This document shows, one piece after another, positions 2,029-48,932 of a stretch of 64,000 bases of DNA. The translations under genes and the position numbers were made by a program. How positions within the stretch are numbered: the first letter of the stretch is position 1; every line of letters begins with the position of its first letter. The stretch is from an uncultured Candidatus Saccharibacteria bacterium (GTDB lineage: Bacteria; Patescibacteriota; Minisyncoccia; Phycocordibacterales; CSBR16-119), in NCBI GenBank assembly GCA_964557535.1, contig CAZLAD010000002.1:85560-149559 (forward strand), read 5' to 3'. Under the pieces are notes generated by a model. That model ran no database searches. It was not told the DNA's origin and saw nothing but the letters and a program-made list of their open reading frames with translations.

Positions 2029-2613
2029 CTACAGATCAAATATTTTCTTCAATCTTTTTTCATTCTCTATATAACTTGTTTCCAAATAAATCACCTCTTC
2101 GACGAGCTTCGTGTCGGTCTTTATAAGATCGATCAAACCTTCACTTTTGTATGGGTACACCCACACGCTTGTTTGTAAAAGTCGAAACCCAATTTCTTGG
2201 AGTTTTCGACGGAAACGATTTCTACTCCCGCGACTTTTCTCCGGCACATCATAGACAACTACTCGCCATTTACCATCCCATTCTTTTTTGATTGGAATCT
2301 TATAGATATTCTTAAGATATGAGTCCCCTTTGTCTGTGATTTCCACATAAACTTCCCCACCACGAACACTCCTTTTTAAAAGTCCGAGCTTTATCAGTTT
2401 TTCCATCGAACGCTTGGCGCGAAAAATATGAGAGCGATTATCTCCAAGTTTTAGATTTTTTAATATCTTAATGGCGTTTGGCGCCATCATCGTCATACTC
2501 AACATCCCAGCAGTATAAATAGTCCGAAGCAAAACTTCCTGCCAATTTATTCTGTCTTTCCCTGCATATTTCGGCAATTTTATTTTCTTACGTCTTTCAC
2601 CACCCTTACTCAT
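2029..2613 (-). CDS. winged-helix DNA-binding domain fused to a Cas2-like domain (putative regulator)
   Basis: The N-terminal half has wHTH-like features (GLLKRSVRGGEVYVEITDKG wing). The C-terminal half WRVVVYDVPEKSRGSRNRFRRKLQEIGFRLLQTSVWVYPY follows the Cas2/VapD-fold pattern (VxxYDV..RRR..kL...G.R.Q.SVf). Long palindromes flank it on both sides. Confidence 0.55.
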   Translation of the reverse strand: MSKGGERRKKIKLPKYAGKDRINWQEVLLRTIYTAGMLSMTMMAPNAIKILKNLKLGDNRSHIFRAKRSMEKLIKLGLLKRSVRGGEVYVEITDKGDSYLKNIYKIPIKKEWDGKWRVVVYDVPEKSRGSRNRFRRKLQEIGFRLLQTSVWVYPYKSEGLIDLIKTDTKLVEEVIYLETSYIENEKRLKKIFDL

Positions 2614-2620
2614 TTTTTAA

Positions 2621-2662
2621 ATGTAACATTTAGTTGGACGACCGTCTAGTTTAATGTGACAT
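2621..2662. repeat. imperfect palindrome with the same GGACGACCGTC core (copy 2)
   Basis: 15 of 20 arm positions are symmetric. Lies 8 nt upstream of the start codon of the wHTH-Cas2-like gene. Confidence 0.6.
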
Positions 2663-2691
2663 AACTATGTTGAAAAATTAAAATAAAAGCC

Positions 2692-2943
2692 CTATTTAAA
2701 AGGCATTAAAAACGAACGAAGCCCCGACGCATTTGCGTGGGGCTTCGGCATGTAGTACTTACCCCGTGGGGTTTCCTTTTGTTGTCTTGGGTTTTGTTCG
2801 ATCTTCAAGTTAAAGTGCTTGCTCCAATAAGGCGCAGTCACCAATACGAGGAAGAGAAGGACGAAGAAAACCAAGATTCCAGTGTATTCGTTTGGCTCGG
2901 GTTTGATTCCAAGCTTTTTGCTAATTCCGTATCCTGGTCCCAT
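2692..2943 (-). CDS. small membrane protein (hypothetical)
   Basis: 83-aa ORF with a central hydrophobic helix. Its 3' end runs through a terminator hairpin (2711-2748) and the stop codon lies in the U-tract. Confidence 0.4.
   Translation of the reverse strand: MGPGYGISKKLGIKPEPNEYTGILVFFVLLFLVLVTAPYWSKHFNLKIEQNPRQQKETPRGKYYMPKPHANASGLRSFLMPFK
2711..2748 (-). terminator. terminator GAAGCCCCGACGC-AUUUGC-GUGGGGCUUC plus U-tract
   Basis: Overlaps the 3' end of the small membrane-protein ORF. Confidence 0.6.
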
Positions 2944-2978
2944 GTGCGCTTGTTTTAAACAAAAATATTATAAATGTT

Positions 2979-5069
<2,091 letters not shown>

Positions 5070-5133
5070 TTACCGCATTTTTAGCTTATTGTGGAGCAAA
5101 ATCTAAATTTTCTAAATCCCAATAACTTGTTAA

Positions 5134-5265
5134 GCGAAACGAAACCATTCATGAAAAGGACTTTCGGAGGCGAGCCTGCCTTTTGAAGGACAGGCTCGCC
5201 GAGAAGGAACGGACGGCCATTTACAGGCCGTACCGTGTGCCTTTTCATGAATGGCTTCGTGGAGC
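5134..5265. repeat. GC-rich multi-hairpin element A, closed by a roughly 20-bp outer stem
   Basis: Outer stem CGAAACCATTCATGAAAAGG / CCTTTTCATGAATGGCTTCG. Inner hairpins GGCGAGCCUGCC-UUUUGAA-GGACAGGCUCGCC and ACGGACGGCC-AUUUACA-GGCCGUACCGU. Confidence 0.6.
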
Positions 5266-18182: not shown

Positions 18183-18269
18183 GGAGGATTGGATGAGTGG
18201 TTTAAATCAGCGGTTTACTAAACCGCCGGCTGGTAAAACGGCCCGTGAGTTCGAATCTCACATCCTCCG
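18183..18269 (+). tRNA. class II (Ser-like) tRNA with apparent ACU anticodon (unusual; possible pseudo- or atypical tRNA)
   Basis: Acceptor GGAGGAT/ATCCTCC, T-arm GTGAG-TTCGAAT-CTCAC, anticodon arm GCGGT-UUACUAA-ACCGC, long variable arm. Shares the GAGTGGT D-loop with the neighbouring tRNA-Ser. Confidence 0.6.
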
Positions 18270-18289
18270 CAAATTTTCTAAAAAAGCAA

Positions 18290-25718: not shown

Positions 25719-25861
25719 ATATTTCTTATCTATAAAATTAATAATTTTACGTCAACTCAAAGCAGGGTTACTTTGGCCAACTTTGATCTGCGACAAGGTT
25801 GTCTTCAAATCAACATTGAAATTATATACTATGGAATATCTATTGTCAAAAAAATATTTTG

Positions 25862-25936
25862 TCCACCCTCCACGACTCGAACGTGGGACCCTCGAGGTAT
25901 AAGCTCGATGCTCTAACCAACTGAGCTAAGGGTGGT
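25862..25936 (-). tRNA. tRNA-Ile (anticodon UAU)
   Basis: Reverse complement: acceptor CCACCCU/AGGGUGG, D-arm GCUCAGUUGGUUAGAGC, anticodon arm UCGAG-CUUAUAC-CUCGA, T-arm CCACG-UUCGAGU-CGUGG, discriminator A. Confidence 0.8.
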
Positions 25937-36994: not shown

Positions 36995-37384
36995 CTACCA
37001 AATTCGGAATAACGCTTCCCCGCCGACCAATTCTTTGCGGGCATCGTCTGCAATCATCACACCTTTTGGCGTCGACAAAACCATCATGCCATACCCCTGG
37101 CGAACAGGCTTGATGTCTTTGGCTTTGATGTACACACGCTTTGAAGGTTTGGAAATTCGCTCGACATCAGTGATGCGAGGTGCTTTGTCTTTGACGATTA
37201 GTTCCATTTCTAGGAAAAATTTATTACCCTCGGTCGTCATCTTCGAAGCCTTGGCGATAAATTTGCCTTTAACCAAGCAATTGGCAATAGCGTGGCGAAG
37301 ATTTGAATAAGGAACAAGAACCGTTTTGTGTCCGGCGATTCCAGCGTTCTTGATCTTTATTAACATGTTGGCAATTTTGTCCAT
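36995..37384 (-). CDS. rpsH: 30S ribosomal protein S8
   Basis: 129 aa, S8. Confidence 0.93.
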   Translation of the reverse strand: MDKIANMLIKIKNAGIAGHKTVLVPYSNLRHAIANCLVKGKFIAKASKMTTEGNKFFLEMELIVKDKAPRITDVERISKPSKRVYIKAKDIKPVRQGYGMMVLSTPKGVMIADDARKELVGGEALFRIW

Positions 37385-37427
37385 ATATTTTATTTAGTAA
37401 GTCGGAAGTAGTAAGTCGTAAGTCGCT

Positions 37428-37697
37428 TTACCAAGATGACTTGCGAACACCTGGAACTTCACCTATAGAAGCTAATTCGCGGAATTTGATACGAGAAAGT
37501 CCAAAGTCTCGTAGATATCCTCGTGGACGACCAGTGATCCCGCAACGATTCTTTACGCGTGTTGGACTAGAATTTTTTGGAAGCTTCTGAAGACCTTCGT
37601 AGTCTCCGGAAGCCTTAAGAGCTGCTCTTTTAGCAGCGTATTTTGCAACCATTTTGATGCGCTTATTATTTCGCGCGATTACTGATTTTTTAGCCAT
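37428..37697 (-). CDS. rpsN: 30S ribosomal protein S14 (long form)
   Basis: 89 aa, C-terminus [33 protein letters not shown]. Confidence 0.93.
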
Positions 37698-38133
37698 TGT
37701 TTTTTAGCTGTTAGCTTCTGGCCATTAGCTATTAGCTAAAGGCTAATGGCTAATGGCTCCGGTTCAGTAATATCTCACGTTTTTTCTTGAAGGTCCCGAG
37801 GGGCATTCAAGGAGAAACGCGGATTAAACTGAACTGAGGGCTATATTAGCAGATTGAGATTTTATGTCAATCAAAATAATTTGAGCCCCGGTCTTGTTAG
37901 ACCAGGGCCCCATAGCTGACACGTAAAGTGCTTTTGATAGCGACTTGAATAGCCAAAGGACTTTGGTCCTCGGCAGGGGCAAGAGCACCTGCAAGAATGC
38001 TCTGCCACCCGCCGAGACCATACGACTTGTTGGCATGAACTCTATCATACTCCAACCATATTGTCAAGCGATTTTGGACAATCTTTTACTACCCTGAATT
38101 TATTCATTCCAACGTTCCTCATTGTCTCCACCG

Positions 38134-38170
38134 GACCGTCTCCGCTAGGCCGGACCTAGCGGAGACGGTC
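38134..38170. repeat. perfect 16-bp GC-rich hairpin GACCGTCTCCGCTAGG-CCGGA-CCTAGCGGAGACGGTC
   Basis: Seen directly. Adjacent to palindrome copy 3. No U-tract on either strand. Confidence 0.7.
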
Positions 38171-38184
38171 TCGCGGATAAAAAT

Positions 38185-38222
38185 GTATCATTTTTGTGGA
38201 CGGTCGTCTCAAAAAATGATAC
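38185..38222. repeat. long AT-arm/GC-core palindrome, copy 3 (GTATCATTTTTGTGGACGGTCGTCTCAAAAAATGATAC)
   Basis: Near-identical to the palindrome at 1989-2026 downstream of the wHTH-Cas2-like gene. Confidence 0.8.
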
Positions 38223-38290
38223 GCAAGAAAAATTATGAGATATGAAACAAGAAAGCCCGCGGGCGGCTTTCAAGGGCCAAGAGCGGGCTA

Positions 38291-38689
38291 TTAGGCAGAT
38301 TTGAGGTGGTAACGGCCTTCGAGATAGACACGAAGGGCGTCTTGTACGATTATCAGATCTTTTGTTTCTAGCTCCTCAGACAGAAGGTTCGGCACCATCT
38401 CGATGAAATAGTGCTGGAACATGGCCGCTAGATCATCCAACTCTTCGTTGAAGTTTGCCATGTCTTTTGGAGTAGCTCTGTGATTCCATTCAGTAATCGG
38501 TAGGGCTGCTGGCACGCGATTTCCAGAAAGCCCTTTAAAGGCTATCCTATGCGCTTTTGAGAGAGCTATGTCGATCATACTCACCAACGTGAGCAAACGA
38601 CTCGCCTCTTTAGGGAACAGTTCGCGAATGAGATCGTGCACTGTGGGGATCTCATTTTTTGAGGTCTCATTTTTAGTTAGCATGGCCAC
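38291..38689 (-). CDS. orphan 132-aa protein inserted between rplE and rpsN
   Basis: Higher GC (about 47%). Five spaced His residues (possible DinB-like helical bundle, speculative). Confidence 0.55.
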   Translation of the reverse strand: MAMLTKNETSKNEIPTVHDLIRELFPKEASRLLTLVSMIDIALSKAHRIAFKGLSGNRVPAALPITEWNHRATPKDMANFNEELDDLAAMFQHYFIEMVPNLLSEELETKDLIIVQDALRVYLEGRYHLKSA

Positions 38690-38775
38690 TGAGTTTGTTT
38701 TACCTTACACCAATCTCTAAAAAAACAAAAGCCCCTTTTGGGGCGATTGTTTTCTTAATACTTAATTCCTAATTC

Positions 38776-39315
38776 TTACTTCTTAAACGGAATTCCGAGG
38801 TAATCGAAGAATGCTTTAGCTTCTTCTTTGTTCTTTGCAGTCGTTACAAATGTGATCGCGAGGCCAAAAACGTCTTTGAGTTCTTCGTCCCCTGTTTCTG
38901 GGAAGATCGTGTGTTCTTTGATACCGATTGTCAGGTTTCCGACGTCATCGATTCCTTTCGATTCGAGTCCGCGGAAGTCTTTGGTTCGAGGAAATGACAC
39001 ATGGATTAGTTTGTCGACAAACGAATTCATGCGTTCACCGCGAAGTGTAACCATCTGACCAATGACTTCGTTTTCGCGAAGTTTGAAAGACGCGATTGAC
39101 TGTTTGGCTGCACGTGGAGATGTTTTCTGGCCAGTAATCTTGGCAAGTCGGTCAGCGATAAAATCATTTTTATTTTTATCGTTTTTCATTTTCGATCCTG
39201 TTCCAGAAGAAACAACGACTTTTACCAATCGTGGCGCAGACAAAGGATTTTTGTAACCAAATTTTGGTTTCAAAACCTTGTAAGTATTTGCTAGTTTTTG
39301 TTTAGTAGTTTCCAT
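38776..39315 (-). CDS. rplE: 50S ribosomal protein L5
   Basis: 179 aa, L5. Confidence 0.93.
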   Translation of the reverse strand: METTKQKLANTYKVLKPKFGYKNPLSAPRLVKVVVSSGTGSKMKNDKNKNDFIADRLAKITGQKTSPRAAKQSIASFKLRENEVIGQMVTLRGERMNSFVDKLIHVSFPRTKDFRGLESKGIDDVGNLTIGIKEHTIFPETGDEELKDVFGLAITFVTTAKNKEEAKAFFDYLGIPFKK

Positions 39316-44093: not shown

Positions 44094-44215
44094 TTGATTA
44101 TCGTTTTTAAAACACTACTTATCGGCAAGTGCAACCATAATTTGTAAATTAAGAAGCCTTGAGCCCTTAGCTTTTAGCCGTTAGCTAACGGCCAATGGCT
44201 AAGAGCTAACAGCTC

Positions 44216-48864: not shown

Positions 48865-48932
48865 GAAAGCCATTAGCCTTTAGCCATTAGTTTTTAGCTA
48901 ACGGCCAACGGCTAAGAGCTAAAAGCTATAAT

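Follow-up and report, generated by a model that had tools for sequence, protein, structure and literature searches.

A variable rplE-rpsN junction and a conserved leader RNA upstream of rpsN in a Paceibacteria ribosomal-protein cluster

In the window, by which we mean the whole stretch of 64,000 nucleotides (nt) of contig CAZLAD010000002.1 that was analyzed, the minus strand carries the S10-spc ribosomal-protein cluster. In this cluster, rplE and rpsN are 1,078 base pairs (bp) apart (37698-38775, minus strand), and we examined this gap, the gene ORF132 within it, and a structured leader RNA just upstream of rpsN. An earlier note on this DNA had described an insertion of about 1.1 kb with an orphan open reading frame (ORF) of 132 amino acids (aa) and about 590 nt of noncoding DNA. 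This description is correct, the noncoding part being 37698-38290 (593 nt). According to the ORF map, the gene order of the downstream unit is rpsN-rpsH-rplF-rplR-rpsE-rplO-secY. The features needed for the following are, in the direction of transcription:

39315..38776, minus strand: rplE (ribosomal protein L5; Pfam Ribosomal_L5 and L5_C), last gene of the upstream unit
38718..38744, minus strand: intrinsic terminator after rplE from a terminator scan, GCCCCAAAAGGGGC followed by UUUUGUUUUUUU, hairpin at 38744-38731
38689..38291, minus strand: ORF132, orphan cargo gene, 132 aa from GTG (public gene call P0001: 130 aa from ATG at 38683)
38245..38271, minus strand: terminator after ORF132 from the same scan, GAAAGCCGCCCGCGGGCUUUC followed by UUGUUU, hairpin at 38271-38251
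37843..37870, minus strand: sigma-70-type promoter of the rpsN unit, TTGACA-N16-TGC-TAATAT, from a consensus scan and conservation
37839-37756, minus strand: conserved 5' leader RNA of 84 nt, from alignment, covariation, and covariance model R1
37721..37757, minus strand: TAGC-type hairpin with 15/16 bp in a TAGC block (37702-37758), from folding, between leader and rpsN start
37697..37428, minus strand: rpsN (S14, long 89-aa type; Pfam Ribosomal_S14 and ORF map), first gene of the downstream unit

The hairpins that had been listed previously (a 16-bp GC hairpin, a palindrome, and the TAGC block) are all present. The noncoding part had also been called GC-rich and structured, of which the second attribute stands and the first applies to a small degree. 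The segment 38290->37875 had a folding energy of -176.8 kcal/mol in comparison to -123.8 kcal/mol for shuffled sequences (z = -9.7), and its structure is therefore beyond chance. The GC content was 46.2% in the noncoding part, 47.1% in ORF132, and 42.7% in the whole window, and as 17% of equal-sized windows reach or exceed the value of the noncoding stretch, the term GC-rich was overstated. Searches with Rfam 15 at permissive filters yielded no match at E<=0.1 on either strand of the gap, including 37698-38290. The best match in 37300-39000, a terminator look-alike, reached 23.6 bits (E 0.14), where the threshold was 40. At the Rfam gathering score, the whole window contained one tmRNA and two tRNAs only, and an ARAGORN scan for tRNA and tmRNA found nothing inside the gap.

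Junction variability and the boundary between two transcription units

To compare the junction within the lineage, the Paceibacteria (Patescibacteria), rplE neighborhoods were fetched from 80 species-level relatives by rplE similarity, and junction spacing was measured in 58 related species. The L5-S14 gap ranged from 57 to 3,789 bp with a median of 854 bp and exceeded 500 bp in 35/58 species. The assumption that rplE and rpsN are universally adjacent thus fails in this lineage. The L14-L24, L24-L5, S14-S8, S8-L6, L6-L18, and L18-S5 junctions had medians of at most 20 bp and maxima below 240 bp, so that rplE-rpsN is the one permissive, orphan-collecting site within the examined run from rplN to rpsE. 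This corrects an assumption of annotation and synteny, as the junction is not fixed in this large lineage.

Expanded gaps held one to six ORFs that were mostly unrelated to each other, and in an all-against-all BLAST comparison 61 of the 81 island proteins were singletons. Their Pfam matches were scattered (pilin N_methyl, TruB, CAAX protease, guanylate kinase, ROK, a helix-turn-helix (HTH)/Gp49 pair, Schlafen AlbA_2, PaaX_M), with no transposase, integrase, or recombinase in ORF132 or among the top 25 of the 38 Pfam families of the relatives' 80 island proteins. Neither BLAST nor phmmer detected any similarity of ORF132 to the relatives' cargo, and no pseudogene remnant was found when the relatives' island proteins were searched against the spacer of the window by tblastn. 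The relatives thus bear different cargo and not the same insertion.

The closest relative (locus L002), whose L5 is 90% identical, carries a different cargo of 2.4 kb with three ORFs. Only four landmarks are shared with the window, namely the 3' half of the rplE terminator (AGGGGCTTTTGTTT), the second terminator, of which 18 nt (CCGCGGGCTTTCTTGTTT, window 38262-38245) are identical at the end of the different L002 cargo, the -10 region of the promoter, and an rpsN-proximal block of about 68 nt (37835-37769) that is 91% identical. A different cargo within the same landmarks supports the view that cargo is swapped. In addition, L002 has about 110 nt with a long hairpin (AAAACATCGCTCAAAAAGAC...GTCTTTTTGAGCGATGTTTT; 4540-4690) between the rplE stop and the shared terminator, indicating that sub-segments of the junction turn over too.

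A terminator-like hairpin was found within 160 nt 3' of rplE at 57/79 loci, compared with 20/318 coding control windows. Relatives with short junctions have, in direct succession, the rplE stop, a GC hairpin with a T-run, TTGACA-N17-(TGn)TAGTAT, the leader, and rpsN, and a promoter of the form TTGAC(A/T)-N16-17-TGn-TAGTAT lies directly 5' of the leader at 43/45 loci. In the window, three minus-strand sites have the GC-rich stem-loop and U-run of an intrinsic terminator by consensus match (38744-38731, 38271-38251, and 37910-37883). The usual layout in this lineage is thus rplE, intrinsic terminator, variable cargo, sigma-70-type promoter, a leader of about 85 nt, and rpsN. By comparison of the relatives' junctions, the insertion is not unique. 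The junction is a lineage-wide variable site and transcription-unit boundary, and what it holds in the window is variable cargo of the kind usual for this lineage, placed where the operon is split.

In our interpretation, the ribosomal-protein cluster would be cut between rplE and rpsN into two transcription units, and the DNA between terminator and promoter would be free of the constraints imposed by operon transcription and coupled translation. As cargo at this position would break neither a transcript nor coupled translation, the gap may have become a hotspot at which unrelated cargo genes arrive and leave, presumably by acquisition.

Two further aspects of this neighborhood were observed. 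Among loci L002-L081, S14 is mostly of the short 61-aa type, and the long 89-aa type occurs in the window, L002, L004, L072, and L079. With such mixed lengths, rpsN seems to have been replaced within the lineage, beside the variable junction. The spacers after rplE (38745-38790) and between rpsN and rpsH (within 36995-37427) consist of low-complexity TAAG/ACTT repeats with abundant stop codons in several frames, for example TTAAGAAGTAAGAATTAGGAATTAAGTATTAAG.

The rpsN leader and its likeness to the S8 site of 16S ribosomal RNA

Lining up the sequences upstream of rpsN revealed the motif RAUC-CGYGUUU-CUCC-UUAAG-(variable hairpin)-UUUAAG-AAAA-AAACRCG-A-GAUAUY. It is laid out as an outer helix (P1), an asymmetric loop, a second helix (P2) of 7 bp, a 3x3 CUC/AAA loop, a third helix (P3) of 6 bp, and a variable apical hairpin. 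In a structure-blind MAFFT alignment of 30 sequences (A2), 83% of the cells were paired in comparison to 71% after shuffling. The covariation score was 0.397 versus 0.183, with 0/500 shuffles reaching 0.397, and slid controls gave 0.08-0.16. Both-sided changes were found in 19/26 pairs, and RNAalifold independently recovered P1, P2, and P3.

We then searched the covariance model R1 over 655 kb, comprising the window and the 80 loci. It gave one match per locus, on the gene strand and always just upstream of rpsN, with E<1e-5 in 45 species and four weaker matches. In the 64-kb window, the leader was the sole sense-strand match (74.3 bits, E 2e-13), and the only other match was its own antisense echo with 26 bits. 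The weaker antisense score and the frequent G-U pairs indicate that the conserved entity is a sense-strand RNA. In 18 sequences that were not part of the seed, P2, P3, and the core pairs were kept in 15-18/18 cases and the terminal P2 pair in 12/18. An alignment of 45 sequences (A4) was 88% paired with a covariation of 0.545 versus 0.191, values that are biased towards structure, as this alignment was fitted to the model. The outermost P1 pairs were poorly kept, which fits a transcription start a few nt into the model and hence a leader that forms the very 5' end of the messenger RNA (mRNA).

The leader is thus a real structured RNA with a conserved architecture, and the functional noncoding part of the gap is the promoter together with this leader. 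The earlier note had suspected an unannotated, operon-internal structured regulatory RNA. Such an RNA exists, and it is the 84-nt rpsN leader and not the GC hairpins that had been highlighted, as the GC hairpin, the palindrome, and the region of about 37880-38290 are absent from L002 and hence not conserved. The leader appears to be undescribed, being absent from Rfam 15 and from two surveys of ribosomal-protein leaders (PMC3616713, PMC7247131), whose texts mention neither rpsN nor rpsH nor Parcubacteria.

The distance from P1 to the rpsN AUG varied from 7 to 136 nt (median 28). Spacers without a predicted hairpin had 7-21 nt (mostly 14-21), were AU-rich, and contained no Shine-Dalgarno sequence, and long spacers consisted of stable hairpins (mean z -3.3), as in the window with its TAGC hairpin spacer (z = -6.4). 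Analogous CTAG-rich hairpin spacers lie between leader and rpsN in relatives. Similar TAGC/GCCATTAGC hairpin spacers were seen elsewhere in the window at 44165-44215 and 48868-48923 (TAGC blocks 44161-44214 and 48868-48924), directly upstream of ribosomal-protein genes, so that the three sites lie before rpsN, between an rplW-like and an rplB-like ORF, and between an infC-like ORF and rpmI.

The primary S8 site in helix 21 of 16S ribosomal RNA (rRNA) is a helix that is interrupted by seven conserved loop nucleotides, with the base triples (G597-C643)-U641 and A595-(A596-U644) and the invariant A642 (PMC4176348). The second triple differs elsewhere, being G595-(C596-G644) in Thermus and A80-(A81-U11) in the Escherichia coli mRNA site (PMC4176348). 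We compared the leader with helix 21 of E. coli (5' strand AAGUC, 3' strand GAUACU), from which the host lineage's own helix 21 may differ. The leader core 5'-RAUC / 5'-GAUAUY with its bulged U-A corresponds to the core of this site, position by position as follows:

37825-37822 (AAUC) and 37774-37769 (GAUAUU), minus strand: S8-like core in the window, U37772 and A37771 bulged
C599-G639 of the rRNA: C-G in 44/45 leaders; C37822-G37774 in the window
U598-A640: U-A in 45/45 leaders and invariant across 48 leaders; U37823-A37773
U641 and A642, bulged: U in 47/48 leaders (C in L005) and A in 48/48; U37772 and A37771
G597-C643: A-U in most leaders, G-C in L023, L042, and L057; A37824-U37770
A596-U644: G-C in 32 leaders, A-U in 12, C-G in L042, none unpaired (A4); A37825-U37769
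A595, unpaired: one or two unpaired bases, mixed A/U/G/C; UU in the window

The leader thus has the asymmetric loop with a bulged invariant A after the base equivalent to 641, and it has the closing pairs U598-A640 and C599-G639. It is also located on the mRNA that encodes S8, as it precedes rpsN-rpsH in the window and at all 45 loci, with rpsH (S8; 37384..36995 in the window) as the second gene of the downstream unit. The pair equivalent to 597-643 was always present and covaried, and its commonest combination, A-U with U, is not that of the rRNA. In L023 and L042, the core is xGUC/GAUACx (AGUC/GAUACU in L023) and thus has GUC/GAUAC in common with 16S rRNA, and L057 seems to match this core as well when read by eye, the model alignment being gapped there.

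In E. coli, S8 represses the corresponding gene set (PMC3616713). Considering this repression, the S8-like core, and the position of rpsH as the second gene of the unit, we propose that the leader is an S8 operator. Read from the sequence, it would be a ribosomal-protein leader of the rRNA-mimic type with S8 as the candidate ligand. By binding the 5'-terminal leader of the mRNA, excess free S8 would lower the expression of rpsN-rpsH and the following genes. As the leader lies near an AU-rich start region without a Shine-Dalgarno sequence, translation initiation would be the most likely point of repression. For the explanation as a whole, that is split transcription units, a gap that serves as hotspot, and an S8-type autoregulatory leader for rpsN-rpsH and the downstream genes, we estimate a probability of roughly two in three.

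Several observations weigh against this explanation. We infer S8 as the ligand from a 10-nt motif and from gene context. The pair equivalent to 597-643 is A-U in about 94% of the leaders versus G-C in the rRNA, the unpaired base equivalent to 595 is variable (A in about 40%), and there is an extra 1-nt bulge beside the C-G pair. In E. coli, the model R1 did not match helix 21 of 16S rRNA, and with filters off it had no match at the rplX-rplE junction, the place of the spc operator. For this reason, full-length mimicry of helix 21, which we had considered, was dropped, and the claim of mimicry is limited to the core motif. The silence of Rfam is uninformative with regard to S8, as in a control no Rfam model detected the E. 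coli S8 operator. The strongest conservation of the leader (UCUCC-UUAAG ... UUUAAG-AAAA, including the CUC/AAA loop) lies outside the S8-like core, and this block has no assignable counterpart in helix 21, so that another ligand or a second function is possible. Within this block, C/A is exchanged for A/C in the CUC/AAA loop of L024 and L047, and L073 has a replacement by U-A. About 7-10 relatives have rpsN without a clear leader. Shuffled spacers gave similar counts of unpaired exterior bases, which makes the argument for a constant effective, single-stranded distance between leader and AUG weak. With respect to the cargo, a clear promoter or Shine-Dalgarno sequence for ORF132 was not found, and ORF132, as an orphan, could be a spurious ORF.

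It is well known that 5'-terminal hairpins commonly protect mRNA. The leader could be real and yet not respond to S8, serving as a stabilizing 5' hairpin or binding some other factor, for example an RNase or a ribosomal protein of the unit other than S8. The position at the very 5' end of the transcript would suit this role, and so would the conservation peak in P3 and the CUC/AAA loop, the rRNA-unlike equivalents of 597-643 and 595, and the missing match of R1 to helix 21. However, six core bases including the bulged U-A are those of 16S helix 21 in nearly all 48 leaders, the two adjacent core pairs covary, and a plain stabilizing hairpin needs no invariant asymmetric loop. Moreover, the second gene of the unit encodes S8, which in E. 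coli is known to repress this gene set. We consider an S8-unresponsive leader possible, although somewhat unlikely, and keep the S8-type autoregulatory leader as the preferred explanation.

Cargo, hairpins, and palindromes within the gap

No homologue of ORF132 was found in any of the protein searches, in agreement with the orphan status that had been assigned to it before. There was no match in Pfam, NCBIfam, PHROGs, PADLOC, or the sequences of the PDB, a word search in 5.8 billion proteins found only ORF132 itself, and an HMMER search of 1.84 billion representatives gave, besides the protein itself, only two artefacts. These were a tandem-repeat protein and a PKD-repeat protein, which we rejected as homologues because their scores were sums over many weak stretches. 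The codon log-likelihood of ORF132 was 0.21, in comparison to 0.27+-0.08 for genes and -0.01+-0.13 for shadow ORFs. AlphaFold2 predicted an all-helical structure from the single sequence (predicted local distance difference test (pLDDT) 73, predicted template modeling score (pTM) 0.64), and this model had no match below E 0.4 among the folds of PDB and BFVD. Identical copies of ORF132 are present on three contigs of the same organism. Codon usage, the helical model, and the terminator that follows suggest that ORF132 is a real gene.

Downstream of ORF132, the single, species-specific cargo gene of this genome, about 370 nt of non-conserved hairpins follow that comprise terminator-like stems and a solitary palindrome:

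38134-38170: perfect 16-bp GC-rich hairpin with a 5-nt loop, GACCGTCTCCGCTAGG-CCGGA-CCTAGCGGAGACGGTC
38185-38222: solitary 38-bp palindrome with the core GGACGGTCGTC, from repeat comparison
38067-38039, minus strand: promoter-like site, followed by a long imperfect hairpin (38026-37958) and the terminator-like hairpin 37910-37883, from consensus scans and folding

The 16-bp hairpin has no counterpart in L002 or at any other locus examined. On the operon strand, three hairpins are terminator-like, namely 38271-38251, 38222-38185 (followed by AUUUUUAU), and 37910-37883. The last of these directly adjoins the -35 region of the rpsN promoter, a position that rplE terminators take in relatives whose junctions are short.

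Positions 38224-38243, immediately downstream of the ORF132 terminator, repeat part of the leader's 3' half in inverted orientation (CAAGAAAAA..GAGATAT), forming a 20-nt inverted repeat with 37770-37789 that is 85% matched. The significance is borderline, and the copy could stem from an old rearrangement at the island border.

The solitary palindrome matches 1989-2026 of the window at 35/38 positions, and a degenerate copy is found at 2623-2660. These two other copies abut the stop and the start of a gene (2613..2029) that encodes a PaaX_M domain (Pfam PF20803, E 1e-21). PaaX proteins are DNA-binding repressors. Paceibacteria homologues of this gene (about 190 aa) have palindromes of 36-48 bp, often perfect, at both ends, beginning a few nt from the start and stop codons, and the palindrome sequence follows the protein clade, with a GGACGGTCGTCC core in one and a GCTATAGC core in another. 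In L079, a palindrome-bracketed PaaX-like gene is located inside the rplE-rpsN island (4590-5262), and the same bracketed arrangement was found in L085-L090 (around 2380-3125). The exact palindrome pattern had no match in a viral collection and one unrelated match in high-GC coding sequence among metagenome contigs. Judged from sequence, the palindromes that bracket PaaX-like genes could serve as operators, or they could delimit a small mobile cassette. Next to the solitary copy between rplE and rpsN there is no PaaX-like gene, and this copy is probably the footprint of a lost cassette or a site that is bound in trans by a PaaX-like protein. In comparison to PaaX-family regulators in general, with which the PaaX_M domain is shared, the palindromes here are unusually long and abut both gene ends.

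These findings bear on the question of whether the insertion is the remnant of a mobile element, with ORF132, hairpins, and palindromes having arrived together and decayed thereafter. The earlier note had mentioned this option, and it is supported to a limited extent, in that one hairpin belongs to the family of PaaX-flanking palindromes, a member of which lies with its gene in the island of L079. The slightly elevated GC content of the segment, the orphan ORF132, and the inverted partial leader copy would also be in line with such an origin. However, neither ORF132 nor the island families listed above include a transposase, integrase, or recombinase, and the cargo boundaries show no terminal inverted repeats or target-site duplication. 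Furthermore, the window has no second copy of the block, its sole repeated part being the 38-bp palindrome, scans of viral and metagenome collections for this palindrome gave nothing relevant, and the codon usage of ORF132 is host-like. A common mobile origin of the insertion is therefore unlikely.

Conceivably, 38067-37883 could also be a small-RNA gene in its own right, with promoter, long hairpin, and terminator, and a product of about 150 nt. The promoter-like site agrees at 10/12 positions and has an extended -10 TG, downstream of it the same strand has a terminator-like stem of 12 bp with a U-run, and the predicted structure is strong. On the other hand, the element is conserved neither in L002, with its 90%-identical L5, nor at any other of the 80 related loci, it has no Rfam match apart from weak ones of hairpin type, and the region contains 7 promoter-like sites versus 3.9 expected from shuffling. 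The terminator is equally well explained as insulation before the rpsN promoter, as in relatives. A transcript of about 150 nt or merely insulating terminators are thus possible contents of 37883-38067, and we regard an independent small RNA as quite improbable. A single large structured RNA encoded by the entire 590-nt stretch, for instance a divergent housekeeping RNA of the RNase P, 6S, or SRP kind, is hardly credible in spite of the very negative folding z-score and the location in a highly expressed cluster, as no Rfam family scored below E 0.1, the fold breaks up into separate local hairpins that are mostly palindromes at the DNA level, three of the hairpins are terminator-like, and, in contrast to a housekeeping RNA, the sequence is missing from the closest relative.

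Apart from the junction, two tRNA calls in the window were recorded. The tRNA-Ile with the anticodon TAT (25861-25935, minus strand) is supported by ARAGORN and Rfam. ARAGORN also called a tRNA-Ser with the anticodon ACT (18183-18270, plus strand) that is without Rfam support. At a distance of about 160 nt from it, the opposite strand has a tRNA-Ser(GCT) that is supported.

Comparison with known systems

Integration hotspots or "islets" are fixed sites between conserved core genes at which differing and often orphan genes are found. The rplE-rpsN site resembles them, as unrelated and often orphan genes occupy one site between two conserved genes. It differs in that it lies inside a rigid ribosomal-protein cluster, that its flanks are a terminator and a promoter with leader, and that neither a recombinase nor a tRNA target accompanies it.

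Autoregulatory leaders of ribosomal-protein genes are the textbook case of rRNA mimicry. With the leaders surveyed by Fu et al. (2013; PMC3616713) and Eckert and Weinberg (2020; PMC7247131), the rpsN leader shares the lineage-restricted, covarying 5' untranslated region and the proposed rRNA mimicry, and it would be a separate family from those described there. With 16S helix 21, it shares the C-G and U-A pairs, the 2-nt U-A bulge on the 3' side, the two further pairs, and the unpaired 5' base. Outside this core, the leader sequence is unrelated, the base equivalent to 595 is variable, and the 597-643 equivalent is mostly A-U.

The closest functional parallel would be the translational S8 operator of the E. 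coli spc operon (Cerretti et al., 1988; Merianos et al., 2004; summarized in PMC3616713 and PMC4176348), an S8 operator known only from Gammaproteobacteria (PMC3616713). A full-text literature search found no paper that links the spc operon to Patescibacteria. On a more tentative level, and with considerable doubt, Paceibacteria may have rebuilt spc control by cutting the cluster at rplE|rpsN, installing a non-homologous S8-sensing leader, and using the insulated gap as a standing site for the acquisition of foreign or newly arisen genes. Some of these could have come as PaaX-like cassettes between long palindromes, and the loss of such a cassette may leave a solitary palindrome. If the leader is indeed of the S8 type, it would have evolved independently in these ultra-small bacteria, as nature's second answer to this control problem, and it would be directly testable with the 10-nt core and a clear point mutant.

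The E. coli operator is a hairpin in mRNA that mimics the helix-21 site of S8, and the likeness of the leader is read from its sequence. Both have the asymmetric loop and the invariant bulged A, next to which a base triple forms in the E. coli operator and may form in the leader. Both also have single-base bulges that the rRNA lacks, which in the E. coli mRNA operator are thought to lower the affinity (PMC3616713). Both also precede or lie within a gene set that includes rpsN and rpsH, which the E. coli operator controls. The two elements are not homologous. The E. coli operator overlaps the rplE start in a continuous operon, whereas the leader lies at the 5' end of a separate transcript that starts at rpsN. 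In the leader, the two strands of the motif come in the order of the rRNA, and in E. coli this order is permuted. The leader has a mostly A-U 597-643 equivalent and, in addition, the CUC/AAA loop and P3.

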